64,000 bases of DNA from Candidatus Iainarchaeum sp. (GTDB lineage: Archaea > Iainarchaeota > Iainarchaeia > Iainarchaeales > DTGL01), in assembly GCA_026396995.1 (NCBI GenBank), contig JAPLVS010000054.1, positions 24,052 through 88,051 on the forward strand, given 5' to 3'. How positions within the stretch are numbered: the stretch's first letter is position 1; every line of letters starts with the position of its first letter. Shown one piece after another: positions 8,156-61,682 of the stretch. The notes beneath the pieces were generated by a model. The model was not told the DNA's origin. It did no database searches and saw nothing but the letters and a program-made list of their open reading frames with translations. The position numbers were made by a program, and so were the translations under genes.

Positions 8156-9073
8156 TTGCCTTTTTTCAACCAAAAAAACACCGAAAACATTAAATTTTCG
8201 GACTTCGTTATTAGATGCATGCCCCAAGACCAGCCTGAATTCGGCAAAACCGCCGCTTTGGCCAGATTAAGGGACGAGCTGGCGGTAGCAGGTTATTCAG
8301 CAAGGACCGCGGAGATGTACCTTGGGTATGTAGAAGACATGCTGGATTTCTCCAAAAAAGCCCCGGAAACCATTACACGGGATGATGTAATGGCCTTCCT
8401 TTCAAAAAAGAGTGCAGAAAACGTGAAGGGCGCAACAATGGCTCTTGTCTATGCCGCCCTGAAATTCTATTTCCATGCGCACCTCAAGCGCAAGATAATG
8501 GAGGACATCAAGCGCCCAAAAAAGGCAAAAAAGCTGCCGGCAGTCATGACCAAGGATGAAGTCAGAGCCATCATAAATGTTGCCTCGGGCACGCAGAACC
8601 GCCTAATCCTCGGGCTGCTTTATTCGAGCGGCCTGAGAGTCAGCGAAATAGTGAACCTCAAGATTGGGAGCCTGGACCTGAAGGAAAAAACAGCCGCAGT
8701 GCGGGGCGGAAAAGGCAACAAGGACCGCATGGTGATCCTTTCAGAATCCTGGGCAAAAGAATTCGGCGAGTTTGTTTCAAAAAGGAAGGCCCAAAGCGAG
8801 TTTGCCTTCTGCAAGAAAAACTGCAAACCGATAAGCGTTGACACGGTGCAGAGGCTTGTGAGGAAATGCAGGAAGCTGGCTGGAATTGAAAAAAACATAA
8901 CGCCCCACTCCTTCAGGCACAGCTTTGCAACACATCTCCTCGAGGCAGGCGAGAACATCAGGAAAATACAGGAACTGCTTGGCCATTCAAGCCTTTCCAC
9001 AACACAAATTTACACAATGATCTCAACAGAGGAATTGAAAAAAGTGAAAAGCCCGCTGGATTCGCTTAAATAG
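8156..9073 (+). CDS. xerA: Tyrosine recombinase (XerA/XerC-like integrase family)
   Basis: C-terminal catalytic signature ...R...HSFRHSFATHLLEAG...LGHSSLSTTQIYT (R, H-x-x-R, H, Y). The N-terminal SAM-like core-binding region is AGYSARTAEMYLGYVEDMLDF. The real start may be the internal MPQDQ. Confidence 0.7.
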   Translation: MPFFNQKNTENIKFSDFVIRCMPQDQPEFGKTAALARLRDELAVAGYSARTAEMYLGYVEDMLDFSKKAPETITRDDVMAFLSKKSAENVKGATMALVYAALKFYFHAHLKRKIMEDIKRPKKAKKLPAVMTKDEVRAIINVASGTQNRLILGLLYSSGLRVSEIVNLKIGSLDLKEKTAAVRGGKGNKDRMVILSESWAKEFGEFVSKRKAQSEFAFCKKNCKPISVDTVQRLVRKCRKLAGIEKNITPHSFRHSFATHLLEAGENIRKIQELLGHSSLSTTQIYTMISTEELKKVKSPLDSLK

Positions 9074-19639: not shown

Positions 19640-19918
19640 AAAGCGTGGGCACGCCCTGAAATCGATTTGGCCTGAAAGGCTGGAGTGACCCACTGCATTC
19701 CTCGCTTCCGTTTACCTCAAAGCATTTCGCTTAAAGGCCACCGTTGCTTTCTTCCGAACCTGGCGGGTTCACCCTTAGGCAAAACCTAAGAGGACAGAAG
19801 TTCCTTGTAGTGCAATGGCTCCGGCTTTCCAGGAAAAACCTTTCCCAAGGCTTCGGTCCCGGCGTGAAGCGGATTTCCGGCTACAGGGAACCGCTGCCTC
19901 CCCAACCTAGCCCACAAA
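19640..19918 (-). ncRNA. ffs: Signal recognition particle RNA (7S/SRP RNA)
   Basis: On the minus strand, GGUGAACCCGCCAGGUUCGGAAGAAAGCAACGGUGGCC matches SRP RNA helix 8 (GGAA tetraloop, AGCA). CACUCCAGCCU pairs with the 5' CCUGGAAAGCCGGAG to form helix 5. The terminal helix is GUGGGC/GCCCAC. A hairpin plus T8 run lies at the 3' end. Confidence 0.65.
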
Positions 19919-32795: not shown

Positions 32796-34718
32796 ATGGC
32801 TTTGTCTGAGTGGAGCGAAGAAAAAGGCTTTTTTGCAAAGAACAAGCCTAAGCGGGAAGAAGGCTCAAACCCTGACAGCGAATGGGAAAAACTCGAGCAG
32901 ACTTTGCTCAGGCGGAAAGACCAGGCCAATTCAATGGATGAGCCTGACGGTGCCCTGATTGCATTGATAAACCAGCTTGATTCCGAACTAAAGGAAAAAA
33001 AGCAGGGCAAGGCAGATGAAAAGGCGCTTGAGCGCTCAAAGGACACGCTGGCAATGATCGATGAAAGGCTGCACGGCACAGACTGGCCTGTGAGGGAACT
33101 GCAGAACAAAGTCAGGAAGGCGGCTGCAGGCGAAAGCAGGGAAGCGATGCCTGCCGCCAGAAAAGCACCGGAGGAAACCAAAATGGCTGCAAATTTTGAT
33201 GTTAAAAAAGAAGAGGAAAAAATAAGGAAAGCCATGGAGGCAAAACTGAGGGAAGCCGGGCAGGCCCAGAAAGAAGACATGTTCGAGGAAGCTGAGCCTG
33301 AAGACCTTGAAGCAGGCGGAAGCGCCGAACCGGCACAGGGCAAGGCTGCAGTCGTGGAAGACGACCTTTTCGAGCCAGAAGAATCCAGGTCGGGTGCGCC
33401 TGAACCGTTGGATGAAGCCGCGGAGGAATCCTTCGAGGAAGAATTCGAGGAAACAGAAAAGCCGGCAAAGGCTGAAAAAAAGGCAGCCGAGCAGCCATCA
33501 AAAAAAGAAAAAAAGGAAGTGTCGCGCGATTCATTCAAGGGAACCGTTGACCTTGAAAAAGCGGAATTTTTGTACAAGGCTTCGGTCAACCAGCTTCTCA
33601 AGGCGCAGCTTGAAAACGGAGCAATCATTCCGACAAGCAGCGAAAAGAGTTATCTGCACATTTACCCGAGGGACCTTGCCTTTTGCACGCTTGCATTGGT
33701 GAAAGCCGAAAGATTCGATGAAGCGCAAAAAGCGCTTGATTTTGCCTTAAGGCACCAGGACAGGAAAACAGGCTGTTTCCCGCAAAGGTGGGACGAGGCA
33801 GGGAACAACAACGGCTACAAGCCGGTGCAGCCAGACGCCACAGCGCTCGTGCTTTACGCTTTCGCAGAATATGTGCTTGAAAAAAACAATGTCGATTTTG
33901 CTGAAGTGAACTGGGACCGCATAGAGAAAGCCATTGATTTTTTGAATTCGAAAATCGTATCAGACAAAAACCTGGTGTTTGCGCCGTCCTCTGTGCACGA
34001 ATTCCCGCCGATGGAAGAAGGCTATGAAATCTGGGCAAATGCGGTTTGCTGCGCGGCATTCAGGGAGCTTTCCAAGGTCGCAGAAAAAATAAAGGCAGAA
34101 TATCTCCCATTGAGCAAGGAAAACGCCCTCAAGGATTCGATGCTGCAGTACCTGTGGAATTCGAGAAAGCAGTGCTTTGTAAAAACCATAAGGCTGAGCG
34201 AATCCAGTTCAGTGATGCTCTGGCCTGATGCCTCTGTCCTCGCTCTTTCCTTCTTTGATGTTTTCGCCCCGAACGACAAAAAAATCGTTTCGACAATAAA
34301 ACTGCTGGATGAAAAATTATGGCACAAGTCTTTCGGCGGAATCTCAAAATTCGGCCCGGTTGAAGGCGTTGAAAAAGGCGGTTTCGGGGCAAGCCCGTTC
34401 TTCTCGCTCCTGCTCGCCGACTATTATATCAAGGCAGGCGACAGGGAGAAAGCCGAAAAGTTCCTGAACTGGGTTATTAGCGTGGGACAGGCAGGCTCGC
34501 TGCCTGAACATGTTTCAACCAAAGAGGATTTCGAGGCGTTCGTGCTGGATTTCGGGGACGCCGGCCTCCTTAACAGGAACACAATGAAGCAGATCAACAG
34601 CGTCAGGGAAAGCGGCGATTTCAAGAACGGCATTGCAAGAATCACTGATCCGTTCTCGATGGCGCACGCCGCATTCATCCTTGTCTGGAAAAACTACAAG
34701 GAAAAATTCATGAAGTGA
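32796..34718 (+). CDS. Protein with a ~250-aa acidic/Lys-rich disordered N-terminus and a GH15-like (glucoamylase/trehalase-type alpha/alpha-6 barrel) C-terminal domain
   Basis: SYLHIYPRDLAFCTLAL matches the GH15 Y-x-x-x-W-x-RD-x-AF motif with W replaced by Y. Repeated helical hairpin pattern downstream. The N-terminal 250 aa are E/K/A low complexity. Confidence 0.45.
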   Translation: MALSEWSEEKGFFAKNKPKREEGSNPDSEWEKLEQTLLRRKDQANSMDEPDGALIALINQLDSELKEKKQGKADEKALERSKDTLAMIDERLHGTDWPVRELQNKVRKAAAGESREAMPAARKAPEETKMAANFDVKKEEEKIRKAMEAKLREAGQAQKEDMFEEAEPEDLEAGGSAEPAQGKAAVVEDDLFEPEESRSGAPEPLDEAAEESFEEEFEETEKPAKAEKKAAEQPSKKEKKEVSRDSFKGTVDLEKAEFLYKASVNQLLKAQLENGAIIPTSSEKSYLHIYPRDLAFCTLALVKAERFDEAQKALDFALRHQDRKTGCFPQRWDEAGNNNGYKPVQPDATALVLYAFAEYVLEKNNVDFAEVNWDRIEKAIDFLNSKIVSDKNLVFAPSSVHEFPPMEEGYEIWANAVCCAAFRELSKVAEKIKAEYLPLSKENALKDSMLQYLWNSRKQCFVKTIRLSESSSVMLWPDASVLALSFFDVFAPNDKKIVSTIKLLDEKLWHKSFGGISKFGPVEGVEKGGFGASPFFSLLLADYYIKAGDREKAEKFLNWVISVGQAGSLPEHVSTKEDFEAFVLDFGDAGLLNRNTMKQINSVRESGDFKNGIARITDPFSMAHAAFILVWKNYKEKFMK

Positions 34719-34808
34719 TATCAAAAGACAGCACTATCAGTATTTCCTAAATGTCTTTTGATAGTTATCAAAGGACAAATTTATACGATTATTTTTGTCC
34801 TTTGATAT
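34717..34808 (+). repeat. Double-hairpin intergenic repeat element, copy A
   Basis: ATATCAAAAGACA-N21-TGTCTTTTGATAGTTATCAAAGGACAAA-N14-TTTGTCCTTTGATA fills the whole spacer between convergent genes. Confidence 0.75.
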
Positions 34809-34811
34809 GAA

Positions 34812-35660
34812 TCAACGCGGCTTTCTGCCCTGAAGTTGCCATTTTTTCAGGGTACGCCTTTGCTGCGACCTGCGCATGGCACTCCTTGAAGGCTGCATCG
34901 GCTTCGGCCCGGCTGCAGGCTTTTTAGGCCGCGGATGCTCGAACTCCTCAAGGGAGCGCCACAATAAATCCAAATCCTTGTTTGAAAGATAGCCCTGTTC
35001 GTTTTTCATTTCTGCCAAAAGCCTTGGCCTCAAGTCGGCGCCAGGGCGCTTTCTTTCCAGGCTGGGTTTTATTTCCGTAACAATTTTTGCCGAGAGTGCT
35101 TTTTGTTTTTTGATGTTTTCTTGTATTTGTTTTGCCAGTGTTTCTTTTTTTGACCCTTCAGGCTGCATTTTTCTTAATTCTCTCAATTCAAAAAGTTGCC
35201 AGTAAAGTTTCTCCAGCTCAACAAAATTTGCGCCGAAAATGTCCCGCATCGCTTTAACTTTTCTGTCCCAAGGAAGGTCTTCGTAACCGATGTTTGTTTC
35301 TTTTTTCCAAAGGTGGCCATAAACGGATTTCAGCATTTCAAGCGACCTTTCCATTTTGAAGGCCGGAATTGCATTGGTAACGAAGTTACGGTGGCTTGGC
35401 TTTGAGACAAGGCCGAGATTCGAGAAGTCAAGGAGCAGGTTTGCTGGAACGGTCGAACCGAAATGATATGAATTCGGAAAAAGGGAAGTGGCTGCTTTTA
35501 CCATGTCCGATTTTACACCAAATCGGGTGGCAAGTGTCCTGATTATAATTCCAGAAATTTCGTGTGCTTTGCTTGGATTGAAGTGCCCCCCCCTCTTTGC
35601 TTGGGCGATGCATTCTTCGATTATTGCATCAATCATTGCCTGTGTGACATTTTTTGCCAT
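34812..35660 (-). CDS. Hypothetical protein
   Basis: 282-aa ORF with a basic C-terminal tail. No motif recognised. Confidence 0.4.
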   Translation of the reverse strand: MAKNVTQAMIDAIIEECIAQAKRGGHFNPSKAHEISGIIIRTLATRFGVKSDMVKAATSLFPNSYHFGSTVPANLLLDFSNLGLVSKPSHRNFVTNAIPAFKMERSLEMLKSVYGHLWKKETNIGYEDLPWDRKVKAMRDIFGANFVELEKLYWQLFELRELRKMQPEGSKKETLAKQIQENIKKQKALSAKIVTEIKPSLERKRPGADLRPRLLAEMKNEQGYLSNKDLDLLWRSLEEFEHPRPKKPAAGPKPMQPSRSAMRRSQQRRTLKKWQLQGRKPR

Positions 35661-35764
35661 AATGAATCCCTGTTTTGTTGTTTTTAAAAGAGGATTGTGG
35701 GCGCCTTTGCCCGCCCAGGGAAAAGTGAAAGTTTTTTAAAAAGCACCCGGTATTACTTGGTAGT

Positions 35765-36064
35765 ATGGAGAATGTGAGCCTTAAATTGGACAAGCCGATG
35801 GCAAGGCAGATTGAGAAGGGGATGCGCGAGTTCAATTATTCGACGAAAACGGAATTCATCCGCGATTCCATCAGGGGCAAGCTGAAAGAATTGGAAAAGG
35901 AAAGAGCGGAAAAGAAGGCCTGGGATGCATTGTTTGCATTAAGGGGCTCGCTGAAGGGCAAGGGCCGGTTCAAGACTGACGAGGAGTTTTATGCGTGGAG
36001 GGCAGGCGAGGGAAGCAGGCTTTTGGAAGAAAAATTGTCCAAAGAATTGGGCCTGAAACCTTAA
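35765..36064 (+). CDS. Ribbon-helix-helix (CopG/VapB-like) DNA-binding protein
   Basis: N-terminal VSLKLDKPMARQIEKGMRE...STKTEFIRDSIRGKL is a classic RHH beta-strand plus two helices. Confidence 0.55.
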   Translation: MENVSLKLDKPMARQIEKGMREFNYSTKTEFIRDSIRGKLKELEKERAEKKAWDALFALRGSLKGKGRFKTDEEFYAWRAGEGSRLLEEKLSKELGLKP

Positions 36065-36564
36065 AGCAGATTTTCCGGCAAATGCGCCTCAACAATGCCG
36101 ATTTCATCAAAGTGCCGGTCCCTTGTCACCAGTATCGCTTTTTCGTCTCTTGCAATAATCGAATGTAAAATGTCATAAAGCGGGACTTTTTTTCCAAATT
36201 TTTTCAGCAATCCAAGCGCTTCCCGAGATTGTGTTGTTGTATGCGCTACTTTTACAATTATCCCAGTAAAACCAGAAAAAATGGTCGTAATCTGTTCCTG
36301 TGATAAATGGGCTTCCAGCTCTTCAATAACAATATCTGAAACAATTATCTGTGCTTTTTCTTTCACGCATTTTTTCAGGAACAGGAAAGCGAACTCTCCA
36401 AGCGGCCGCATGCCGTCTTTCCTGTCCTCGAAATAATCCCTCCAGACTGAAGTATCTAAGTAAAATCCCCTGGCCACAAGGAAATCCTGCGGAGTGAAAG
36501 GATTAAGGCTTTCGAGGGATGGTTTCCCCTGAACCTGGAAAAGCAAACAATTAAATTCCGCCAC
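36061..36564 (-). CDS. vapC: PIN-domain ribonuclease (VapC-like toxin)
   Basis: Four acidic PIN residues in context: FYLDTSVW, IVIEELE, LYDILHSIIA, LVTRDRHF. Confidence 0.7.
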   Translation of the reverse strand: MAEFNCLLFQVQGKPSLESLNPFTPQDFLVARGFYLDTSVWRDYFEDRKDGMRPLGEFAFLFLKKCVKEKAQIIVSDIVIEELEAHLSQEQITTIFSGFTGIIVKVAHTTTQSREALGLLKKFGKKVPLYDILHSIIARDEKAILVTRDRHFDEIGIVEAHLPENLL

Positions 36565-36579
36565 TGCCTTTTATTTGAG

Positions 36580-36900
36580 GTGGTCTGTGTGAAGAAAATT
36601 TTCAAAATGGCGGTTGCCTCGATAGTGATAATAATTGCGATTGTTTTGGCCGTTAATTTCGCATATATGCCGAAAATAGACTTTTCCTGCAGTGGGGATT
36701 CGGATTGTATTGTTATAGACGGGCACAACTGCTGCGGCTACTATCCGGTTTGTGCCAATAAAAATTCCATTCCAAACCCCGAATATGTGACATTCAAATG
36801 TTCGATAACCGGCGAATCCAGCGTTTGCGGCTGGACCCATATCGATGGCTGCAAATGCGTGAACCGCAAATGCGAAGGCTACCAGCGGCAGCCTGCCTGA
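36580..36900 (+). CDS. Small secreted/membrane-anchored cysteine-rich protein (12 Cys in 106 aa)
   Basis: N-terminal hydrophobic anchor (MAVASIVIIIAIVLAV) followed by CSGDSDC..HNCCGYYPVC..C..C..CKC..C. Confidence 0.4.
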   Translation: MVCVKKIFKMAVASIVIIIAIVLAVNFAYMPKIDFSCSGDSDCIVIDGHNCCGYYPVCANKNSIPNPEYVTFKCSITGESSVCGWTHIDGCKCVNRKCEGYQRQPA

Positions 36901-37080
36901 AAACCGCTTGGCTTGGCTTTTTAGCCCCCCCGCATCCTTTTTAATCCTTTAGGGTGGGAGTATTATTATTGGAAGGGAATTCTGTTTCTTTGCTTTCTTT
37001 CGAGAGCAAAGGCTTCGCAAGAAGCGTCCTTTCAGTAAAGCAAATGCAATGTTTGCGATTGGAGTTTTGAGGGTGTTGTA

Positions 37081-37668
37081 ATGGGAGTGTTTGATGTTCC
37101 TGCAAGCGATTTGATTGAAGAGATAGCCGTGGATTTGAGGGAAAAATTCAAGATTGAAAAGCCAGCTTTCGCTGATTACGTGAAAACAGGGGTCTGCAAA
37201 GAAAGGGCTCCGCAAAGGCAGGACTGGTATTACGTAAGGATTGCCTCGATTTTGTACAGGATTTTTAAGGAAGGCCCGCTCGGGGTCGGATCATTGCGCA
37301 CTTATTACGGCGGCAGGCAGGCCCGCGGGGTCAGGCCGCACAAATTCGAAAAAGCATCAGGAAAGATTATAAGGAAAGGCATCCAGGACTTGGAGAAAGC
37401 AGGCTTGTTGAAAAAAGCCCCGAAGGGGAGAACGATCAGCCCAAAAGGCCAGTCTTACCTTATCAAAAAATCTAAGGAAGTAAAGGAACTTCTGCCACAG
37501 AAGAAGGCAGAGCAGGAAAGATTGAAGGCAGAGAAGGCCGAAAGGCTTGAGAGAATGCGCTCCGAGCAGTTGAAGAGGGGCGACGTGGAGTCAGGCCCGA
37601 GGGAAAAGTTCAAGAAGAAGGGAAAGGAGGAGAAGGGCAAGGACAAGCCTGAAGAGGAGAAGAAATAG
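37081..37668 (+). CDS. rps19e: 30S ribosomal protein S19e, with K/E-rich C-terminal extension
   Basis: DWYYVRIASILYRIFKEGPLGVGSLRTYYGG...KIIRKGIQDLEKAGL is the S19e signature. Confidence 0.85.
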   Translation: MGVFDVPASDLIEEIAVDLREKFKIEKPAFADYVKTGVCKERAPQRQDWYYVRIASILYRIFKEGPLGVGSLRTYYGGRQARGVRPHKFEKASGKIIRKGIQDLEKAGLLKKAPKGRTISPKGQSYLIKKSKEVKELLPQKKAEQERLKAEKAERLERMRSEQLKRGDVESGPREKFKKKGKEEKGKDKPEEEKK

Positions 37669-37682
37669 GGGCTGGTGTTTTT

Positions 37683-38009
37683 TTGGTGGATTCAGAGGCA
37701 GAGCAGTTAAAGTCGCTGAAAATGGAGGAACTGCAGCAGCAGTTCGCCCAGCAGCAGGCCGAAGCCGAAAAGAAGGCGCTTGCAGAGCAAAAGATTGAAT
37801 TGCTTTTGAGGAAGCTGCTTTCCCCTGAAGCGAAGTCGAGATTGAAAAACGTGAGGCTTGTCAACCAGGAATTGTATTGGAATGCGGTGCAGCAGGTTTT
37901 GATTTTGTTCCGTTCTGGCAAAATCAAGGGCCAGGTTTCAGAATCGCAGGTTAAAACGCTTTTGGAAGTTCTTTCAAGGAAAAGGGAAATAAAAATAAAG
38001 AGGAAATGA
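37683..38009 (+). CDS. PDCD5/TFAR19-like dsDNA-binding protein
   Basis: LLLRKLLSPEAKSRL...QQVL matches the DNA-binding protein conserved between S19e and L39e in archaea. Confidence 0.7.
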   Translation: MVDSEAEQLKSLKMEELQQQFAQQQAEAEKKALAEQKIELLLRKLLSPEAKSRLKNVRLVNQELYWNAVQQVLILFRSGKIKGQVSESQVKTLLEVLSRKREIKIKRK

Positions 38010-38281
38010 AAATGAGCTCTACCAAAGACAAGGAATTCAAGGATTTTATTATCAGCGAAAAGAAAAAAATCGGCACAGGCCTTTCTTCAACCCCGGTCTG
38101 GGTGATGCAGAAGGCAGGAAAGCGCGTTTCAGGGAGAAGGCAGGCAAGGGGCTGGAAGGAAAACGATTTCGGGGAGCGCTACAGGAAAAGGAAATTGGAT
38201 GCGAAAAGGCAGAAGAGAGGCAAAGCGGTTAATTCCAGGCACGGAAAGATAAGGCCGGCCGGCAAAAGGAGGAATGACTGA
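38006..38281 (+). CDS. rpl39e: 50S ribosomal protein L39e with unusual ~35-aa C-terminal extension
   Basis: TPVWVMQKAGKRV...GRRQARGWKEN aligns to the L39e core (VPxWVMxKT...RRHWRR). The ORF runs on to overlap the rpl31e start. Confidence 0.5.
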   Translation: MKMSSTKDKEFKDFIISEKKKIGTGLSSTPVWVMQKAGKRVSGRRQARGWKENDFGERYRKRKLDAKRQKRGKAVNSRHGKIRPAGKRRND

Positions 38282-38706
38282 TGGCCGAAAAAATGATTAT
38301 TTCGCTTGTTCCGGTTTTCACTGCACCGAAAGGCAAGAGAGCCAGAAGGGCAATGAGGAAAATAAGGGTCGACCTTGAAAAGCGCTTCCATGCCGACAAA
38401 GAGGCAATATTCATTTCAGCCGGAATAAACCATGCTGTTTTCGAAAAAGGCTTCATAAAAATCCCAAGGCGCATTGCGATAATGGTCGAATCCGAAAAAG
38501 GCAAGGTGCGCGCTTTCCTCGAAGGCGAAAAGCTGCCTGTGAAAAAAGAAGAGAAAAAGGAAAAGAAAGAGGAAAAGAAATCCAAGGAAGAGAAAAAGGA
38601 AGACACCGAAGAGCAGGCAGAGCTTGAGAGGAAGAAAAAGGAAAAGCACGAAAAAGAACTTGCCGCGGAAAAGACGGCAATCAAGCTGAAAACTGGCAGG
38701 GTGTAA
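38281..38706 (+). CDS. rpl31e: 50S ribosomal protein L31e with K/E-rich C-terminal tail
   Basis: RRAMRKIRVDLEKRFH...NHAVFEKGFIKIPRRIAIMVE fits L31e. Confidence 0.8.
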   Translation: MAEKMIISLVPVFTAPKGKRARRAMRKIRVDLEKRFHADKEAIFISAGINHAVFEKGFIKIPRRIAIMVESEKGKVRAFLEGEKLPVKKEEKKEKKEEKKSKEEKKEDTEEQAELERKKKEKHEKELAAEKTAIKLKTGRV

Positions 38707-38713
38707 GCCTCAG

Positions 38714-39373
38714 ATGAGGATCGACAAGCGGACCCTTGAAGCAAGCCCGTTTCTCGGGGTTTTCGGCATCCTCACAGACAAAATATTCCTTGTCCCCTCG
38801 GGCATCCTTGAAAAGGAACTGCAGGGATTGCAGGATTTTGCAGGCGTTGAAGTATTGAAGGCAAGCATTGCCGCTTCCCCGCTTTTAGGCGTCCTTGGAA
38901 TCGGCGTTAAAGAAAAGATAGCGGTTTCGGACCTCGCAAGGGACAGGGAAATAGTTGCACTGGAAAAGGCAGGCCTGAAGGTCACAAGGATTGAAGGTGC
39001 CACGGCGCTCGGCAACCTTGCGCGCATCACCGAAAAAGGCGGTGTTTTGTCACCCATACTTTCAAGAGAGCAATGCGAAAAGCTCGAATCCTTTTTCGGC
39101 GTGAAAATGGTCGAGAGCACTGTCGCAGGCCTTGACCTTGCCGGTTCAAGCATTGTGGCGAATTCGAAAGGCTTCATAGTGCACCCCGGGGTTTCAAAGG
39201 AAGAGTTCGCCCGCATAAAGAACGCATTGCAGGTAGAGGGCATTCCTACAACCGCGAACTACGGGGACAGGTTTGTCGGGAACAGCGTTCTCGTGAACAG
39301 CAATGCGATGCTTTTGGGCGTTAACACTACAGGCCACGAACTGATGAGGATTGAGGAGGCGTTTTTGGGCTAG
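38714..39373 (+). CDS. eif6: Translation initiation factor 6 (aIF6)
   Basis: Five-fold pseudo-repeat with SPFLGVFGILTDKIFLVP / SPLLGVLGIGVKEKIAV. 219 aa. Confidence 0.85.
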   Translation: MRIDKRTLEASPFLGVFGILTDKIFLVPSGILEKELQGLQDFAGVEVLKASIAASPLLGVLGIGVKEKIAVSDLARDREIVALEKAGLKVTRIEGATALGNLARITEKGGVLSPILSREQCEKLESFFGVKMVESTVAGLDLAGSSIVANSKGFIVHPGVSKEEFARIKNALQVEGIPTTANYGDRFVGNSVLVNSNAMLLGVNTTGHELMRIEEAFLG

Positions 39374-39383
39374 CATTCTTAAC

Positions 39384-39470
39384 ATCAAAAGGCATTGATT
39401 CAGGAATTTTTCTGGCCTTTTGATAACTATCAAAGGGCAATATTGTTCATTTATTTTTGTCCTTTGATAT
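39384..39470 (+). repeat. Double-hairpin intergenic repeat element, copy B (diverged)
   Basis: ATCAAAAGGCA...GGCCTTTTGATAACTATCAAAGGGCAA-N16-TTGTCCTTTGATAT lies between eif6 and rplX. Confidence 0.6.
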
Positions 39471-39542
39471 AACGCATAAAAAACCATTCATCCATTAATT
39501 TTTGGAAATATTAATTTTTTGGAAATTCCAGTTGGTGAGAGC

Positions 39543-39722
39543 ATGAGGTTTGAATTGAAAGGTGTTTTCCAGCAGAAAGGCAATGAAAAGCCGTTCTGCA
39601 AGAGCATAGAGGCCGAAAACGAGGGCCGCGCAAAGGAAAAGCTCCTGAGTCTTTTCGGTTCGGAGCACAGGCTCAAGAGGCGCTCTGTGAAGATAACCGA
39701 AATCAATAAATTAAAGGAATGA
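39543..39722 (+). CDS. rplX: 50S ribosomal protein LX (L18Ae/L20A)
   Basis: MRFELKGVF...FCKSIEAENEGRAKEKLLSLFGSEHRLKRRSVKITEI matches the LX pattern (F.V.G.F...A.nee.A.e...S.H). Confidence 0.6.
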   Translation: MRFELKGVFQQKGNEKPFCKSIEAENEGRAKEKLLSLFGSEHRLKRRSVKITEINKLKE

Positions 39723-39726
39723 CTAA

Positions 39727-39816
39727 TATCAAAAGACATTAATAATGATATTTTCTAAATGTCTTTTGATAGCTATCAAAGGACAAATTTATGCGATTAT
39801 TTTTGTCCTTTGATAC
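39727..39816 (+). repeat. Double-hairpin intergenic repeat element, copy C
   Basis: ATATCAAAAGACA-N21-TGTCTTTTGATAGCTATCAAAGGACAAA-N14-TTTGTCCTTTGATA lies between rplX and pfdA. Confidence 0.75.
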
Positions 39817-39845
39817 AATAAGTACATTGTTTGAGAGGTGAAGCG

Positions 39846-40313
39846 ATGGCCAAGGAAAAAACACAGAACAAAGAGGTGAGGCTCAGCCCCCAGCAGCTTG
39901 TTTCATTGTACCAGAACCAGCGCGCTTTAATGGACAACCTGCTGCAGCAGGAAGCGATGATGCAGGAAGCCGCAAGGGAAATAATCGGCGCAGAGGACGC
40001 CCTCAAGGAAATAGACAAGGCCGAAGAGGACGCTAACGTCCTGGTGTTGCTTGGCGCAGGCGTTTTCGTTGAAGCGAAAGTGAAAGGCAAGCAGGTAAAG
40101 AGCGACATAGGCAGCGGAGTGGTTGAAAACGCCACTGTAAAAAAAGCGCTTGAGCACCTTGAAATAAAGAAGAAAAACATTTCCGCAAATATTGCAAAGC
40201 TCCAGAAGAAAAAACAGGAAACCGCAGCGGGCCTTGCAAGGCTTGAAGGAATACTCCAGCAGGTGCAGAAAGCGCTGGCCAAAAAGGACACTTCGCCCTC
40301 AAGCGTTTCCTGA
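39846..40313 (+). CDS. pfdA: Prefoldin subunit alpha
   Basis: Coiled coil - beta hairpin (VLVLLGAGVFVEAKV) - coiled coil, about 155 aa, in the conserved position before ftsY. Confidence 0.7.
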   Translation: MAKEKTQNKEVRLSPQQLVSLYQNQRALMDNLLQQEAMMQEAAREIIGAEDALKEIDKAEEDANVLVLLGAGVFVEAKVKGKQVKSDIGSGVVENATVKKALEHLEIKKKNISANIAKLQKKKQETAAGLARLEGILQQVQKALAKKDTSPSSVS

Positions 40314-40325
40314 ACGTGAAGAAAA

Positions 40326-41942
40326 ATGTTTGACCTGTTAAAGGAAAAAATTGCAGCTTTTGCAAGTAAGCTCGGCAAAAAAGCAGAGGAAAAACCGGCA
40401 AAGCCTGCCCAGGAAACCCGGGAGGGCGGCAGGCGCGAGATAACTGATTATTACGAAAGGTCTCCGGCGCGCGCAGTCGAGGAAATGGTGCTTCCCGGCG
40501 CCAAGGAAAAAAAGGCCGGGGCAATAGCCGAACCGAAAAAAGCCCAGCCGGTTGGGATAGTTCCTGCCGGAGAAAAGCCCCGGGCTTTGGAAAAGCCTGA
40601 AAAAATGGGGGCGCTTTCAGAAAGCATTTCAAAGGTAAAAGAAAAGCTGGCCAGGGCAGAAGCCGTGGAAAAAGCCGCGCCAGAAAAACCGGCTGAAAAA
40701 AAGCCGGAAGAAGCCAAGGCCAAAAAGCCTGCGGAAAAGCCAAAGGAAGTTCTCCCGGAAAAACCCAAGCCGCCTGAAAAGCCGCCGGAAGAAGAATTCA
40801 GGCTTTCGAAAATCAGCGGCTTGTGGAAGGATGTTTTCAAGGCGCCTCCGAAAACCGTGCCGCCTGAAGAAAAATCCGGAATTCCAGCAGGGAAACCGGT
40901 TCAGCAGGAACTTCCGGAAATGCAGCCTGTTGCCAGGGAGCAAAGGGAATTTGAAAAGCCGCCAATTGTTTTTGAAAAGGAACCTGAAATAAAACCGCCT
41001 TTCAGGGGGCCTGCAAGCGCGCCAAAATTGCCTGAAACCGACAAAAGGGAACTGAAGGCGAAAGTCGGGGCAATCAAGACATTGAAGGGCGTTTTGCAGG
41101 GCTATGTGCAGTTGGGCGAAAAAGAAATCAACAGCATGCTTTTCGAGCTCGAAATGTCATTGCTTGAAGCGGATGTGAACCAGGAAACAGCGAGCGCCCT
41201 TGTCCAAAAAATAAAGGAACTGCTTGTGAATGAAAGGATTCCGCGCGGGAACGAGGTCAGCGGCTTCCTCAAGGGCAAAATCAAGGAAGCACTCACTGAG
41301 CTCACGGCCACAGAAAGAGTCAATCTGTTCGAATTGATTGAAAGGTCGAGAAAGCCTTTCAAAATCCTTTTCCTCGGCCCTAACGGCGCAGGCAAAACCA
41401 CAACCATCGCAAAGCTTTCCTTTGCACTGCAATTGACAGGCAAGACAGTCATTTGGGCTGCAGCCGACACCTTCCGCGCTGCTTCAATCGAACAGCTTGA
41501 AGAGCACGCGAAAAAACTGAAGATAAGGGTTGTAAAGCACAAATATGGTGCTGACCCTGCTGCAGTTGCATTTGATGCAGTGAAAGCGGCTGAAGCGAAC
41601 CACGTTGATGTTGTAATGGTTGATTCTGCAGGCAGGCAGGAAACAAACAAGAATTTGATAGAGGAACTGAAGAAAATCGAGCGCGTCCTGAAGCCTGATT
41701 TCAAGATTTTTATCGGTGAAGCGTTCGCAGGCAAGGGCTTATTGGAGCAGGCGAAGGCTTTCGATGAAGCGCTCGGAATCGACGGCTTCATCCTCACAAA
41801 AATCGACACAGACGCAAAAGGCGGCACAGTCCTTTCCCTATTATGCGAATTGAAAAAGCCGGTTCTCTTCATCGGCACAGGCCAGTCCTACGAAGACTTG
41901 GTTCCGTTCACGCCGCAGTACATTATCGACAGGATTGTTTGA
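40326..41942 (+). CDS. ftsY: SRP receptor FtsY with ~280-aa K/E/P-rich N-terminal extension
   Basis: NG domain with ILFLGPNGAGKTTTIAKL, DTFRAA, DSAGR and TKIDTDAKGG. PEKP-type repeats in the N-terminus. Confidence 0.9.
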   Translation: MFDLLKEKIAAFASKLGKKAEEKPAKPAQETREGGRREITDYYERSPARAVEEMVLPGAKEKKAGAIAEPKKAQPVGIVPAGEKPRALEKPEKMGALSESISKVKEKLARAEAVEKAAPEKPAEKKPEEAKAKKPAEKPKEVLPEKPKPPEKPPEEEFRLSKISGLWKDVFKAPPKTVPPEEKSGIPAGKPVQQELPEMQPVAREQREFEKPPIVFEKEPEIKPPFRGPASAPKLPETDKRELKAKVGAIKTLKGVLQGYVQLGEKEINSMLFELEMSLLEADVNQETASALVQKIKELLVNERIPRGNEVSGFLKGKIKEALTELTATERVNLFELIERSRKPFKILFLGPNGAGKTTTIAKLSFALQLTGKTVIWAAADTFRAASIEQLEEHAKKLKIRVVKHKYGADPAAVAFDAVKAAEANHVDVVMVDSAGRQETNKNLIEELKKIERVLKPDFKIFIGEAFAGKGLLEQAKAFDEALGIDGFILTKIDTDAKGGTVLSLLCELKKPVLFIGTGQSYEDLVPFTPQYIIDRIV

Positions 41943-41987
41943 GTATGGGCGCTAGCTTCGCCCAGCAATATTGGCAGGATTGTGTAA

Positions 41988-42719
41988 TCAATCGCTTCTT
42001 TTTCGCCTGAACAAGCGCTTACGTTTTTTTCCGACAAGTTCTTCTACTACAAGCTTTTGCACTTGCCTTGAAACCTCTTCTCTCGGAAGCGTCGTGTCGA
42101 TTTCAAAAACACGCACGCCTTTTGCCCTGAGTTCGGCAAGCCTTTTTTCGTTTGCCTTCTCCATTCTTTCCAGGTTTTCAAGTTTTTCGTGCTTGAAAAC
42201 AACTCCGCCCCACTCGTCCACGACATTCCTTTCCGCAATCCTTTTCACTGAGACCTCTGGCGGTACCCTAAGGTGTATTACGGCGTCAGGCAAAGGGCCG
42301 GCTACAGCCCTGGCAGTGCTTTTTGTAACAAACCTCGGGATTTTTCCAGCGTATACTGCGGTAATTGCCGTCGCGTCGGTCACCGGATCCCTTTGGAAAA
42401 GGCGCACATCGCTTTTCCTTGTGGCAACCCTTGCAGCGCGGAATGCGGACCCTGCAATCGCACTGCCGGCCAGGATTTTTCTGTCGGAGCCTTTTTCGGC
42501 GCCTCTTTTTATGAGGCGCTTGCCATAGCCTCCAACCCTTCCGGCAACCCCCTTGAACCCGACAAAGTGCGGGGCGTCAATTATTGCAACATTAAGGCCC
42601 TTTTCCCTGAGTGCCTGCTGCAGCTTCCCGGCAACTGTTGTCTTGCCGCAGCCGTCGATTCCGACAATGGCGATATCTGTCGGGCGCTTTCTTTTAAAAG
42701 GGCGTTTCAAAGGCGGCAT
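41988..42719 (-). CDS. Thymidylate-kinase-like P-loop NMP kinase paralog (short form)
   Basis: N-terminus MPPLKRPFKRKRPTDIAIVGIDGCGKTT has a Tmk-type P-loop. A DRY-like QRDPVTDATAI...AVYAG follows. It is the last gene of a four-gene minus-strand operon. Confidence 0.45.
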   Translation of the reverse strand: MPPLKRPFKRKRPTDIAIVGIDGCGKTTVAGKLQQALREKGLNVAIIDAPHFVGFKGVAGRVGGYGKRLIKRGAEKGSDRKILAGSAIAGSAFRAARVATRKSDVRLFQRDPVTDATAITAVYAGKIPRFVTKSTARAVAGPLPDAVIHLRVPPEVSVKRIAERNVVDEWGGVVFKHEKLENLERMEKANEKRLAELRAKGVRVFEIDTTLPREEVSRQVQKLVVEELVGKKRKRLFRRKRSD

Positions 42720-44032
42720 TATTTTTTCCTTCTTCCCAATTTTGCCTTCACTTTTTTCTCAATTGAAATTTTCCATTCAAGGTAGCGCTTGGCCCCCCTG
42801 GTTATTGTTTCGACCTTCGAGGACACATTGTATTTGCCGTAAAGCCTTCCGAGTTTCTTGTATGCGAAATGGTCTGCCAGAATGCCCATCATTTCCGGTT
42901 CCCTTACAATCGAGGAAACAATATAAGCGGTTCTCCCAGCAAAGGGAATTGCTCCGATGAGCATCGCTTCCCCGCTGTGCAATCTCTTGATTTTTTCATA
43001 TTCTTCCGCAGAAATATTTCCGGCCAAGCGCCTTGCCATCCCAATTCCCCTCATAGCGGCCGTATAGGCCGGCCTTCCCACGGTTCCGACGCCGGCCATT
43101 ATTACCGGCACCCCGCTTATTGCCAGATGCACTCCGAAGTGCGTCAAAAAATCCGAAAAATAGCCTTTCCCTATTTTTTCCCTCAATTCCGCAGCTTTCT
43201 CCTGACCAATTCTTCCTTCTTTTTCCCAGCGCCAGATTCCATCAACCATAAATTGCATGGCCTGCTCTTTCTTTCGCTCCAGATATTTTTTCCTGCCTTT
43301 TTCCATTAGCCTTTTTTCTTTCAATATCCTTTGCACCTGCCCTAAAACTGCCTCCTTTGGAAGAGATGCATCTATTTCCAGAATCCACACGCCTTTTGAC
43401 GCAAGCTCCGCCTTGCGTTTCTGATAAGCAGAATTCAATCCCTCAAGATTTTCAGGCTTTTCATGCTGGAATTCAATTGCGTGCAAGCCACTGCCACCAG
43501 CTCTTTTTTTTGCAAGCCGTTCGGCAGCAGTTGCAGGCTCTACCGAAAGAAATACTGCAACATCCGGCAAAGGCCCCCCTGCAATCCGCCCGGCTGCCTT
43601 GGAAAACGCCAGGATTATCCTTCCGCCGTACTGCCTTGCCAAGACAGGCGCTTCAATTGCCGGATGCCTTTCAATAATCCTGACAGTGCTTTTTCTCGAT
43701 TTGGCCCTTGCCATCCTTGTCGGAAGCGAGGCAATCGCTCCGCCAGCTGCAGCAAGCCTCTTTGATTGTTTTTCCGCTCCTTTTGCACTAATACTCCTTC
43801 CAAACCCACTCACTCTTCCAATCATTCCGCCATAATCCTGGAAATGCGGAACATCCAGGACCGCGGTTTTGGTGCCCTGCGCATTCAACCGGCTTTGCAA
43901 TCCCCTTGCAAGTGTTGTTTTCCCCGCGCCATCAATCCCCACAATCGCAATATCAGTGGGCCTTTTCCGCCTGAACAATCTTTTTGGGGGCATAAATATG
44001 ATGCTGTTTGTTGAGTTTAAATTACTTTTCAA
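42719..44032 (-). CDS. Thymidylate-kinase-like P-loop kinase paralog fused to a ~200-aa C-terminal domain of unknown function
   Basis: The N-terminal 230 aa are paralogous to 41988-42719 (PPKRLFRRKRPTDIAIVGIDGAGKTT, ERHPAIEAPVLARQYGG). The C-terminal domain is uncharacterised and moderately hydrophobic. TAATG overlap with the downstream gene. Confidence 0.45.
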   Translation of the reverse strand: MKSNLNSTNSIIFMPPKRLFRRKRPTDIAIVGIDGAGKTTLARGLQSRLNAQGTKTAVLDVPHFQDYGGMIGRVSGFGRSISAKGAEKQSKRLAAAGGAIASLPTRMARAKSRKSTVRIIERHPAIEAPVLARQYGGRIILAFSKAAGRIAGGPLPDVAVFLSVEPATAAERLAKKRAGGSGLHAIEFQHEKPENLEGLNSAYQKRKAELASKGVWILEIDASLPKEAVLGQVQRILKEKRLMEKGRKKYLERKKEQAMQFMVDGIWRWEKEGRIGQEKAAELREKIGKGYFSDFLTHFGVHLAISGVPVIMAGVGTVGRPAYTAAMRGIGMARRLAGNISAEEYEKIKRLHSGEAMLIGAIPFAGRTAYIVSSIVREPEMMGILADHFAYKKLGRLYGKYNVSSKVETITRGAKRYLEWKISIEKKVKAKLGRRKK

Positions 44033-44071
44033 ATCGCAATGGCCAAGCCGGCCAAAAGGCTTTCCGGTTGC

Positions 44072-44860
44072 TTATTGCTTTACCACCGGCACAAGCCTTC
44101 CAGACCTTTTCACAAGCTTGCCGTCAGGCGTGAACACAAACATTTTCGCCTTTCCAGTGCGAGGGTCGATGGCTTCGATTTTGCAGTATTTTTCCAGGTC
44201 ATCTGTCGGAACGAACCTGCCCTGCTTTGTAACATTTTCAGATTGCCCCTGCCTTTCATACCCGATGCTTTTGAAAATGCCCTCAAATTTGCCTGGTTTA
44301 AACGAATGTTCACTATAAAACTCTATTTTTCTTCCGGGATTGCCGAAGGAAGGGCGGTTTCCTGCTCTCTTTGCAGGATTTTGGGAACGCACATGCCTTT
44401 CAGCGCGGGAAGCAAATTTTTTGCCGAGCCCAAGCCCCCGCATGCGTTCCGGGATGCGCATGTGCGCCAGGTCTTCTCTGGCAAAGAAAAAAGGGGCGCC
44501 TTTGTCAGGTATGACATCAGTTCCGATTCCCTTTTTCAGCTGGCACTCCAATAACGAGATAATGGACCCGCCCCTGGCAATGATAATTTTCCCGTCCGAA
44601 AGCAGATGTGCACCTCGGAGATTGCCAAAAATAGTTTTCAATGGCACCATGATTTCCTGCTCTGGCCCAATCCAGAATGCGGCATATCTGTTATTGCTTT
44701 TTTGCAGGTCTATCTCCAGCGGCCACACAAGCGGCTTCTTTCCTGCCGCCCCTCTTGCAGTGTCCCTTCTCTGCCTTTTGGCTTCGAGTTTTTCCCTTTG
44801 ATTTGGATATTTATATTTTCTTTCCGCTTTCGGGATTCTGCGCCTTGATTTTTGTGGCAT
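44072..44860 (-). CDS. Hypothetical protein with GNAT-like motif-A segment; paralog of 44870-45693
   Basis: Basic N-terminus. GKKPLVWPL, IIIARGG, and AHMRIPERMRGLGLGKKFASRAERHV, which resembles acyl-CoA-binding motif A. C-terminal IEAIDPRTGKAKMFVF. Confidence 0.4.
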   Translation of the reverse strand: MPQKSRRRIPKAERKYKYPNQREKLEAKRQRRDTARGAAGKKPLVWPLEIDLQKSNNRYAAFWIGPEQEIMVPLKTIFGNLRGAHLLSDGKIIIARGGSIISLLECQLKKGIGTDVIPDKGAPFFFAREDLAHMRIPERMRGLGLGKKFASRAERHVRSQNPAKRAGNRPSFGNPGRKIEFYSEHSFKPGKFEGIFKSIGYERQGQSENVTKQGRFVPTDDLEKYCKIEAIDPRTGKAKMFVFTPDGKLVKRSGRLVPVVKQ

Positions 44861-44869
44861 TTTTTCATC

Positions 44870-45693
44870 TCACTTGACCGGAAAAACGTATTCCTTCACT
44901 TTGCCTGTCCGCGGGTCGATTGCTTCAATTATATGGAAGCGGGACATATTTGATGTCGCTTTTACCCTACCTTCTTTGTGGTATTTCCTCAACACAAACT
45001 CATCTTCTTCTGGGCTTTCTTGCCAGTACCTAATTTTTGTAAAAAGCCGGTCAAAAAGGTCCCGGCGGTTTTCGCCCATCCAAATCGTATTTTTTCCGTC
45101 CTTTTCTCCCTTACATCCCTGTCGGCCCTTGAAGCAAACCTTTCGGCCAGTCCAGTGCCTCTCAGTTTTTTTGGCAAATACATGTGCGCGATATCTGCAG
45201 TGGGCTCTATTGCAAAAAAAGCCATTGCCCAGTGCTTGTCAGTAATCGGTTGCTCACCACCGTTTTTCCATTCATACAGTTTTATCGCTACAAATGGCGA
45301 ATAGTTTGGCACGGTCCTCGCAACAATGATTCTGCCTCCAGGTCCGCGGTAAACCCCCTGCAATAATCTGCCATGTTCCGCCAGCGGAACCGGCACCTCG
45401 TTTTTTCCGTCGAGCAGAACCACTTCCTTCCTTTTGGTTTTTTCCCCAGTTGGCCCCGCGATTTCCCGTTCCACCACGCCTTGTTCCAACATGGTCAAAG
45501 GCTGGACTAATGGTTTTTTGCCGGCTTTTCCCAGTGCTTCCCTGGCAGGAATACCCTCAGCAATCAGTTTTCTTGCCCTTCTTTTTCTTTCTTCCCGCCT
45601 GGCCAAATTCCTTGCGAACCTTTTCCTGGCAAACTTGTCAGGCTCAGGCTTGCCGGCAGTCAGGTATTTTTGAGGAATTTTCCGTGAAGACAT
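44870..45693 (-). pseudogene. Paralog of 44072-44860, interrupted by a frameshift (234-aa N-part 44989-45693 plus 69-aa C-part 44870-45079)
   Basis: Shares GKKPLVQPL, RIIVART, AHMYLPKKLRGTGLAERFASRADRDV with its neighbour. The paralog's C-terminal motif IEAIDPRTGKVKEYVF lies in the separate overlapping 69-aa ORF. Confidence 0.4.
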
Positions 45694-45733
45694 AAATCAA
45701 TTAGTGCCGGACCAGAATAAATTCCTATCCTGT

Positions 45734-47335: not shown

Positions 47336-47427
47336 CCCCCTGAAAAGAAACACTAATTGAAGAATAAAAGTTTAAATATTGATTTGCAAGGCAAAGGGTT
47401 TTATTCTTTGCAATCGTATAATTAGTT

Positions 47428-47691
47428 ATGGCTGGAAGGATTTTACGAATAGCCAAGAAGGCCGGGCAGGCAGTGAAGCACAGAGTCACCAGGTTGAAGG
47501 CCGCAGGCAGTGCAGCGAAAAGGGCGGTCAGGAAAGAAGACCTGGCTTATCTCAAAAGGCGGATTTCGGCCATTGAGCAGGCCAGGGAAAAACACCCCGG
47601 GGCAGCGCACGAGTTAGGCAAGCTGAATGCAAGGCGCAAAAAGCTCGAAGGCAAGATTGCCCGCCTTGGCGGGAAAAACCCCGAGCAATAG
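47428..47691 (+). CDS. Hypothetical small basic coiled-coil protein
   Basis: 87-aa ORF, K/R/A-rich. Confidence 0.3.
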   Translation: MAGRILRIAKKAGQAVKHRVTRLKAAGSAAKRAVRKEDLAYLKRRISAIEQAREKHPGAAHELGKLNARRKKLEGKIARLGGKNPEQ

Positions 47692-47738
47692 ATTGAACCC
47701 TAATCAATCGAAAGGCAATATGCAATGCGGATGTTTTT

Positions 47739-48038
47739 ATGGTTTCACTGCCAGAAATAACAAAAACGCAGTTTGGCAAATTTTTGGCAAATGCTTCCAA
47801 GCTTGGCCTTGAAAGGGTTAATGGCAATAAATCCGATTTTCCCCAAACTGTCCTGATGGTTTACAAATCAAAACATGTGCTTAATTTTGAATGTTTGATG
47901 GGCGGAGGGCTTGAGTTTTACATTGCGGGCATTGTTGAAAAAGGCAGCCTGAGATTGTTCAAAAAACCGGAAGAAATCAAAACATCCGGCCGCCTGCTTC
48001 TTCGCATGAAGAAAAAAATTGAGCAACTGATTCAATGA
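47739..48038 (+). CDS. Hypothetical protein
   Basis: 99-aa ORF. No motif recognised. Confidence 0.3.
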   Translation: MVSLPEITKTQFGKFLANASKLGLERVNGNKSDFPQTVLMVYKSKHVLNFECLMGGGLEFYIAGIVEKGSLRLFKKPEEIKTSGRLLLRMKKKIEQLIQ

Positions 48039-48538
48039 ACTTTGCCCAAGCGTCAATTTCCGTAAATTTAATTTGCCGGCAAAGCTTCCCAAGGGCAAAG
48101 TATTTTTTATTGTTTGCAAGCATATAATCGGTTATGCCTCGGTTTGCCCGCGGGATTGTACGATCTGTTGCTGGTAGAATTTCCCAACGCAGGGAAACCA
48201 GGCGAGCGGCCAGGAGGAAAACCCTTGGCAGGGAACTTGGCATTGTCGGCCTGGACATCGGGCACCTTAATAGGACGGCTTCATTGCACGGCAGCATTGC
48301 CAGAATGCGGCGCCGGAAAGGCGAACCTAACCTCCAGTCCCTGGGAATGGAAGCCAGGGCGCGCAGAGCGGCAGTGCCTCTGGAAAAAAGATCCAGAAGG
48401 CTTAGGGCCCAGCTCGCCGGCCTTGGGGCAAAACCTTAGCAATCCTTCAACTTCCAAGCCCCACAACTGCCCGCAACCTGCTTGAAGCCCAATCTCCTTA
48501 TCGCAAGGTAATAAAACCTTTCAATGCTTATTTTTTGC

Positions 48539-61445: not shown

Positions 61446-61509
61446 GCAATTTCCCGTCCAAAACCCCTTCAGGTAATATTTTTATAGGACAAGCCCCTAT
61501 TTTATTCTT

Positions 61510-61598
61510 ATATCAAAGGACCAAAGTAATGTATAAATTGGTCCTTTGATAGCTATCAAAAGACAGTTAGAAAACCAGTAATGCTGTCTTTTGATATT
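61510..61598 (-). repeat. Double-hairpin intergenic repeat element, copy D (inverted orientation)
   Basis: Its reverse complement reads ATATCAAAAGACA-N19-CTGTCTTTTGATAGCTATCAAAGGACCAA-N13-TTGGTCCTTTGATA. It sits in the divergent promoter region between pth2 and 61683-63476. Confidence 0.75.
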
Positions 61599-61682
61599 AA
61601 TCGATTAATCGCCGAGGCTGGTTGGGAAGGGAGCGGAAAAGGCTGGAATTGCGGTTGGGTTTTGGTTCGGGCGGTTTTGGGA

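Follow-up and report, generated by a model that had tools for sequence, protein, structure and literature searches.

What is the strongly structured repeat that fills most of the spacer between rplX and pfdA in Candidatus Iainarchaeum sp.: a signal that belongs to these genes, or a sequence that came from elsewhere? The repeat, called here copy C, is one of four copies (A to D) found in the window, that is, the whole stretch of 64,000 nt analyzed (contig JAPLVS010000054.1, positions 24,052 to 88,051). With a probability of about 0.85, copy C is one insertion of a non-coding MITE family specific to Iainarchaeota (Diapherotrites, DPANN). This reading rests on direct observations, namely the inverted repeats, the duplicated target site, the dispersal in many copies and the orthologous sites that are empty in relatives.

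Architecture of copy C and of the other copies in the window

The local gene order is eIF6 (assigned by Pfam), located upstream of copy B, then rplX, pfdA and, downstream, FtsY. According to Pfam, the 59-aa ORF annotated as 'rplX' is L18Ae/LX (Ribosomal_L18A), and the 155-aa pfdA ORF encodes a prefoldin. The stop codon TGA of rplX occupies positions 39720-39722 and copy C starts 4 nt further on, while 30 nt separate the end of copy C from the ATG of pfdA at 39846. The features of copy C and the three other copies in the window are as follows.

39724..39726, plus strand: TAA to the left of copy C, the first of the two trinucleotides of its target-site duplication
39727..39815, plus strand: copy C, element proper, 89 bp, TATCAAAAGACAT...TTTGTCCTTTGATA
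39727..39771, plus strand: hairpin 1 of copy C (from the fold), arms with ATCAAAAG (AAAAG), AT-rich loop of 17-19 nt
39765..39780, no strand: central palindrome TTTGATAGCTATCAAA of copy C, two inner arms around a 2-nt spacer (GC)
39774..39815, plus strand: hairpin 2 of copy C (from the fold), arms with ATCAAAGG (AAAGG)
39816..39818, plus strand: right flanking trinucleotide CAA of copy C, second copy of the target-site duplication, diverged by 1 nt
34716..34810, plus strand: copy A with its TGA/TGA duplication (element 34719-34807), between convergent genes
39380..39472, plus strand: copy B with its TAA/TAA duplication (element 39383-39469, 87 bp), between eIF6 and rplX
61508..61599, minus strand: copy D (element 61511-61596) and its flanking TAA/TAA, which reads TTA in the plus orientation; the adjacent genes, PTH2 and one for a membrane protein, are divergent

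In copy C, the motif TATCAAA[A/G]GACA is repeated four times with alternating orientation, which gives a double hairpin. The half-sites of hairpin 1 are located at 39728-39737 and 39761-39770, those of hairpin 2 at 39775-39784 and 39805-39814, and the loop of hairpin 2 contains TTTATG and a run of five T. The outer arms, TATCAAAAGACA and TGTCCTTTGATA, form terminal inverted repeats, 11 of 12 positions matching when one arm is compared with the reverse complement of the other. As a single strand, copy C folds into two perfect stems with an energy of -33.4 kcal/mol (shuffle mean -12.2, z = -7.6), and the folds of copies A to D range from -30.5 to -35.4 kcal/mol (z = -4.9 to -7.6 compared to shuffles). 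Its coding capacity is nil, except for one spurious overlapping ORF of 41 aa.

In the window there are 16 occurrences of the half-site ATCAAARGRC, four per element and none outside the four elements, while shuffled sequences contain 1.49 half-sites on average and 5 at most, none of the 100 shuffles reaching 16. The sequence-only reading, which placed copy C at these coordinates and assigned it to a repeat family, is thus borne out, the family of double hairpins being genuine and far above chance. The likeness of copy C to copy A had been overstated. The loops of hairpin 2 indeed differ by one base, as was claimed, but the central palindromes, described as the same, are also one base apart (TTTGATAGTTATCAAA in copy A, TTTGATAGCTATCAAA in copy C), stem 1 of copy A, described as identical, is about 2 bp shorter in the folds, and the overall identity is 89% over 90 nt with many differences in loop 1, rather than near-identity. 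Moreover, the window holds a fourth copy (D, on the minus strand) that was absent from that account of copy C.

Copies A, B and C are located directly 3' of stop codons and carry runs of five T on the sense strand. The genes adjoining copies B and C are co-directional. In the case of copy A, the left TGA of the duplication (34716-34718) is itself the stop codon of the upstream 640-aa gene, whose convergent neighbor originally ended 1 nt away. Paired stem changes are observed in two copies, GAC/GTC being replaced by GGC/GCC in copy B and GGACAA by GGACCAA in copy D.

A CRISPR array was rejected, given the spacing of the copies (4662, 346 and 21780 nt) and the inversion of one of them; CRISPR, ORB repeats of replication origins and dif-like sites were all rejected based on copy number, spacing and flanking duplications. 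Apart from the repeats, the window contains an archaeal SRP RNA (19643-19917, minus strand, 138.8 bits) and six tRNA genes (Met, Lys, Phe, two Gly, and Val).

Flanking duplications and empty orthologous sites

For the analysis of the flanks, the element was taken as TATC...GATA, and the trinucleotides on its two sides were compared. The flanks are identical in 36 of 49 elements, and in 46 of 60 elements of an enlarged de-duplicated set that includes metagenomic ones. All 46 identical pairs have the form TNA (TAA/TAA in 24 cases, TTA/TTA in 19, TCA/TCA in two, TGA/TGA in one), so that TAA or TTA accounts for 43 of them. When the right flanks are permuted, 22.7 identical pairs are observed on average, and none of 100,000 permutations reaches 46. 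Since TAA and TTA are reverse complements, an inverted repeat extending into the flanks would produce TAA...TTA; this inverted arrangement fits only three flank pairs, and hence the flanks represent a direct target-site duplication TNA. A duplication of 3 bp is the conventional reading, as a 1-bp duplication combined with an inverted repeat longer by 1 bp would look the same in the sequence. In the window, the flanks are TGA/TGA (copy A), TAA/TAA (copy B), TAA/CAA (copy C) and TAA/TAA (copy D). Two stop codons, TAA and TGA, are of the form TNA, as are their complements, and a stop codon adjoins 6 of 49 elements; insertion there is harmless in very compact genomes, because the duplication restores the stop.

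The closest relative of the window comes from the assembly JAZDDY01, where contig L060 is syntenic with window positions 36928-41942 at 81-90% identity. Site B is empty in L060: the relative has GCATTCT-TAA-CGCATAAAAAACC, while the window has GCATTCT-TAA, the 87-bp element, and then TAA-CGCATAAAAAACC. Therefore, copy B was inserted in the lineage of the window. It is also present in L001, a short-read contig of the window's organism (Logan contig, SRR20698647) that corresponds to window positions 37772-39403 with 100% identity and ends inside copy B, which means that the repeat breaks assemblies of this organism. Look-ups of identical proteins, aimed at a longer source contig, brought up short contigs of the same sample only.

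Site C was compared in L060 and in the contigs encoding relatives of the prefoldin (L092-L095). It is empty in L092 (prefoldin of 79% protein identity), which has GGAATGAC-CAA-TACGTACATTG with a single CAA and a rplX-pfdA spacer of 31 nt. In L060 and L095 the site is filled, and the element has the same flanks, TAA and CAA, as copy C of the window. In L093 (61% identity, the same gene order from S19e to FtsY) both sites B and C are empty, with spacers of 62 and 29 nt, respectively. Site C is empty in L094 as well; here an ORF upstream overlaps rplX, so there is no eIF6-rplX spacer to hold an element. Transposition is classically recognized by such a pattern, in which the boundaries fall exactly at a duplicated trinucleotide and the empty allele has this trinucleotide once. 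A search for further syntenic loci, a metagenome scan guided by the eIF6 protein, yielded 600 pattern matches and no true relative.

At site A, L060 has the TGA stop of the 640-aa gene, then 17 unmatched nucleotides, and then sequence that matches the window beginning at position 36931, so that L060 lacks copy A together with the next 2.2 kb. The left edge of this segment (window 34719-36927) coincides with the left end of copy A. The segment holds, besides copy A, a 282-aa ORF without Pfam matches and a 97-aa ORF; a weak ribbon-helix-helix ORF (35765-36064) and a PIN-domain ORF (36061-36564) resemble a toxin-antitoxin pair. Window positions 41943-45729 and 47395-48499 also lack counterparts in the otherwise syntenic L060. 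The paralogous ORFs 41988-42719 and 42719-43993 each have the P-loop motif GxxGxGKT near the N-terminus.

Copy C is identical between the window and L060 in 88 of 89 positions, while the surrounding 5-kb block averages 87%; in the orthologous copies of L060 and L095, 1 of 89 positions differs, with the adjacent pfdA at about 80% nucleotide identity. Strong selection on copy C was rejected, as 7% of the 90-nt windows in the syntenic block are equally conserved, and the 88/89 identity is weak evidence of constraint. By nucleotide identity of pfdA, the empty L092 groups with the filled L060 and L095, and the window lies outside that group. Such nesting of an empty site among filled relatives requires precise loss of the element or its exchange by homologous recombination (gene flow). 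A study of a Diapherotrites population has described recombination (PMC5905446).

Distribution and variation of the family

A scan with the 20-nt core CYTTTGATARYTATCAAARG, performed with one genome per prokaryotic species, returned 87 stretches. The four-half-site architecture was found in more than 50 places, all of them in Iainarchaeota/Diapherotrites, in at least 13 assemblies. The MAG JBDRIL01 carries about 20 of them, several copies each occur in JAZDDY01, JAZDDZ01, JBAZQI01, JBBSVV01, JAPLVT01 and the single-cell genome of Ca. Iainarchaeum andersonii, and the full-architecture element is also present in a Ca. Forterrea MAG. A scan of metagenomes with the left end produced further members of the family. 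Bacterial matches to the core were rejected, as they comprise the central palindrome alone and are chance matches or other repeats. L002, L031, L053, L068, L070 and L083 (Parabacteroides MAG CAMTPG01) contain an unrelated tandem repeat TTTTGA[TC]AATT[AG]TC that matches the core by chance. In viral contigs scanned with the core there were three matches, all by chance and inside unrelated sequence.

Most variation is confined to the loops and to length. The elements are 85-92 bp long, shrunken ones being 55-75 bp and enlarged ones about 145 bp. The shrunken members of 55-68 bp (L050, L033, L039) keep all four half-sites. The enlarged members of about 145 bp (L106 2389-2530, L110, L130, L133) have two extra small hairpins between the two conserved ones, whose sequence varies from member to member and is self-complementary every time; L118 has additional hairpins within loop 2. 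Across 60 distinct elements the outer arms are nearly invariant, and the 11/12 match of the inverted repeats holds in nearly all of them. The central palindrome is nearly invariant as well, and its 2-nt spacing is fixed, while the outer half-sites are at variable distances. The loops range from 2 to 28 nt, and it is the stem sequence, not only the pairing, that is kept throughout the class: the inner repeats persist, and so does the A/G distinction between the two hairpins, even in elements with loops of 2-5 nt.

The mean loop identity is 0.85 within a genome and 0.68 between genomes, which fits lineage-specific amplification. In JBDRIL01, loops are reverse-complemented with the stems unchanged, in 5 of 17 copies for hairpin 1 and, independently, in 4 of 17 for hairpin 2. 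These flipped loops (e.g. L003, L027, L066, L073, L076 compared to L006, L032, L071) are small inversions across hairpin arms. There are also a decayed copy (L027 5870-5965), a lone end (L035) and a copy with an insertion of roughly 50 nt in loop 1 (L040). In Ca. Iainarchaeum andersonii (L018 5527-5694), a tandem pair shares one TTA, the first element being partly degenerate.

According to Pfam, the genes next to the elements are unrelated housekeeping genes, e.g. those of ThrRS, L15e, epimerases and ParA, and all recurrent neighbors tested are housekeeping ones. A crude ORF-based caller placed all copies in intergenic regions and found all four gene-orientation contexts (18, 15, 9 and 7 cases), though the exact counts are unreliable, as it mislabels copies B and C of the window.

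Nature of the element and alternative explanations

The family is thus composed of small non-coding elements with terminal inverted repeats, a target-site duplication, dispersed copies and presence/absence polymorphism, and the decayed, truncated, tandem and enlarged copies were likewise counted in favor of a MITE. The IS1031-type subgroup of the IS5 family prefers to duplicate TNA. Since DDE transposases of the IS5 family and of the PIF/Harbinger type characteristically leave 3-bp TNA/TWA duplications, the mobilizing enzyme is probably of this type. Canonical Harbinger elements, which are related to the IS5 family, also produce 3-bp duplications (PMC12730594). Such a transposase, acting in trans, would bind the conserved 12-bp repeats, the target TNA would be cut with a 3-nt stagger, and, after joining of the element, repair would leave TNA on both sides. 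The inner repeats may serve as extra binding sites or for hairpin formation, as each strand can be folded into two hairpins.

Neither the window nor the other loci searched, about 50 from Iainarchaeota and 53 from metagenomes, contained an autonomous partner with the same ends, and in none of these sequences were paired ends with a TNA duplication located 0.6-4 kb apart. Isolated half-sites with up to two mismatches were remnants and chance matches only, and the scan of metagenomes with the left-end pattern gave MITEs and chance matches, none with a right end 0.6-4 kb away. An all-against-all comparison of ORFs yielded no multi-copy ORF, and no transposase was seen among the neighbors of any copy. 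At the lone perfect end in L035, there was no transposase-like ORF among the listed neighbors, one of which looks by eye like a glycosyltransferase. Among the genes of the window, a XerA-like tyrosine recombinase (8219-9073, plus strand) was the single recombinase seen, and nothing links it to the elements.

One competing explanation treats the repeats as functional transcript signals, that is, terminators, RNA-processing or RNA-stabilizing double hairpins, or small RNA genes, that punctuate eIF6-rplX-pfdA. The very stable hairpins, with the energies and z-scores given above, agree with such a role, as do the positions of copies A, B and C directly behind stop codons, the T5 runs of their sense strands (oligo-T causes archaeal RNA polymerase to terminate), the conservation of copy C in L060 and the stem changes on both sides that preserve pairing in copies B and D. 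Still, it is very improbable as the primary identity of the repeat, being already contradicted by the empty sites: relatives with the same gene order do without the element and have rplX-pfdA spacers of 29-31 nt (L093, L092), and the flanking direct repeats mark insertions. Neither does the genomic context match, the genes around copy D being divergent and those around copy A convergent, with all four orientation contexts occurring in the crude ORF-based count. The flips in JBDRIL01 include the T-runs, so the strand of the T-rich loop is not fixed, and stem mismatches, 15 G.T and 11 A.C on the forward strand, lack strand bias and so give no sign of pairing selected on one RNA strand. A search of the four copies against Rfam gave nothing at the gathering score and nothing relevant at E <= 1, the matches with the best E-values being at chance level (e.g. 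mir-968, 25.7 bits compared to the cut-off of 88 bits). These data leave room for the exaptation of single copies. As for rplX, copies B and C on its two sides had been taken to speak against coincidence and to imply that they bound its transcript. However, if four insertions are distributed at random over the roughly 68 intergenic gaps, at least two of them fall into neighboring gaps with a probability of 17%; relatives do not conserve this flanking, and orthologous sites are empty in several of them. The target-site duplications show that the elements are insertions rather than signals belonging to rplX, and deliberate bracketing of this gene by copies B and C is not supported. A read-through rplX-pfdA transcript with two stable hairpins and a T5 run might, speculatively, be affected in termination or RNA stability.

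An explanation of the repeat as a REP/BIME-like or IS200/IS605-derived PATE shares with the MITE reading the assumption of mobility and differs in the enzyme, a HUH/Y1 transposase (RAYT or TnpA) recognizing single-stranded DNA hairpins. Conservation of the stem sequence throughout the class with loops of 2 to 28 nt fits recognition of a folded hairpin, some members accumulate extra small hairpins, no DDE-type partner was found, and a domesticated single-copy gene would explain the absence of a multi-copy transposase. REP and IS200/IS605 elements are not known to produce a target-site duplication and insert beside a fixed tetra- or pentanucleotide, while here the flanking trinucleotide varies by copy and yet matches on both sides of a copy. 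Given, in addition, the true terminal inverted repeats, and that no gene recurs beside the elements in the Iainarchaeota genome fragments compared (about 0.4 Mb), we regard this explanation as improbable. An array of operators, with the palindrome TTTGATA-NN-TATCAAA bound by a global transcription factor, would agree with the near-invariance of the palindrome, its fixed 2-nt spacing and the intergenic location of all copies. It is extremely improbable, since the neighboring genes have no common function, relatives lack the sites at the orthologous positions, the distance of the outer half-sites varies, and the direct-repeat flanks would have no explanation.

With the MITE family as the preferred reading, its closest analogues are Tourist-like MITEs, which have the same duplication, and Correia elements of Neisseria, which have the same life style and a different duplication. 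Like Tourist-like MITEs (PIF/Harbinger in eukaryotes, IS5-family in prokaryotes), the elements are short, lack coding capacity, end in inverted repeats, duplicate an A/T-rich target of 3 bp (TWA/TNA), and show dispersed intergenic copies and insertion polymorphism. Unlike them, the Iainarchaeota family has a DPANN archaeal host, and each element end is repeated inside, which produces the double hairpin of four half-sites; no cognate transposase was found, and the TATC...GATA ends were matched to no named IS. Correia elements (CREE/NEMIS) are hairpin-forming intergenic repeats of about 100-150 bp that occur genus-wide in the compact genome of Neisseria, have no transposase in the same genome and alter neighboring transcripts. 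The likeness is in the life style, hairpin repeats filling intergenic spacers, whereas Correia elements duplicate TA, have 26-bp inverted repeats, are bacterial and show no sequence similarity to the Iainarchaeota family.

The MITEs SM1-SM4 of Sulfolobus and those of haloarchaea are also non-autonomous transposons of archaeal genomes. They are derived from identified IS elements and limited to a species or genus, while the present family spans many Iainarchaeota lineages, including Forterrea. As in REP/BIME systems with RAYT, short palindromes are clustered in alternating orientation, conserved in sequence and intergenic; REPs, however, go with a RAYT gene and have neither a target-site duplication nor terminal inverted repeats, while the Iainarchaeota element has the duplication, and no RAYT gene was seen. 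Archaeal MITEs have been catalogued, with high densities in some DPANN genomes (PMC11602168). The literature searched on DPANN MITEs, Iainarchaeum and Forterrea yielded no description of this family, a paper on Forterrea transposons having no mention of it, and the family appears to be previously undescribed.

The inner repeats and the A/G difference, kept throughout the class, would not be predicted by plain selfish decay, which suggests that they matter for mobility or folding. Together with the absence of a multi-copy transposase, they would fit the situation of REP-RAYT or Correia elements. By this analogy, the family could be more than a selfish MITE: a single-copy, host-retained enzyme recognizing hairpins may maintain the repeats, as an archaeal counterpart of REP-RAYT or Correia systems, and single copies such as C might be co-opted for operon punctuation (as a terminator, processing site or promoter). 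We consider this extension unlikely. If single copies are indeed co-opted, they would offer an accessible example of how transposons give rise to gene punctuation in archaea.

The MITE identity explains a recurrent structured repeat that could otherwise pass for a terminator, an operator or a regulatory RNA, and it also explains contig breaks in short-read assemblies of Iainarchaeota. The conserved 20-nt core is a lineage-specific marker for metagenomes, and the insertion polymorphisms could be used to track strains. More generally, the family documents gain and loss of mobile elements in very small DPANN genomes with minimal intergenic space, where some insertions target the stop codon itself and leave it restored by the duplication.
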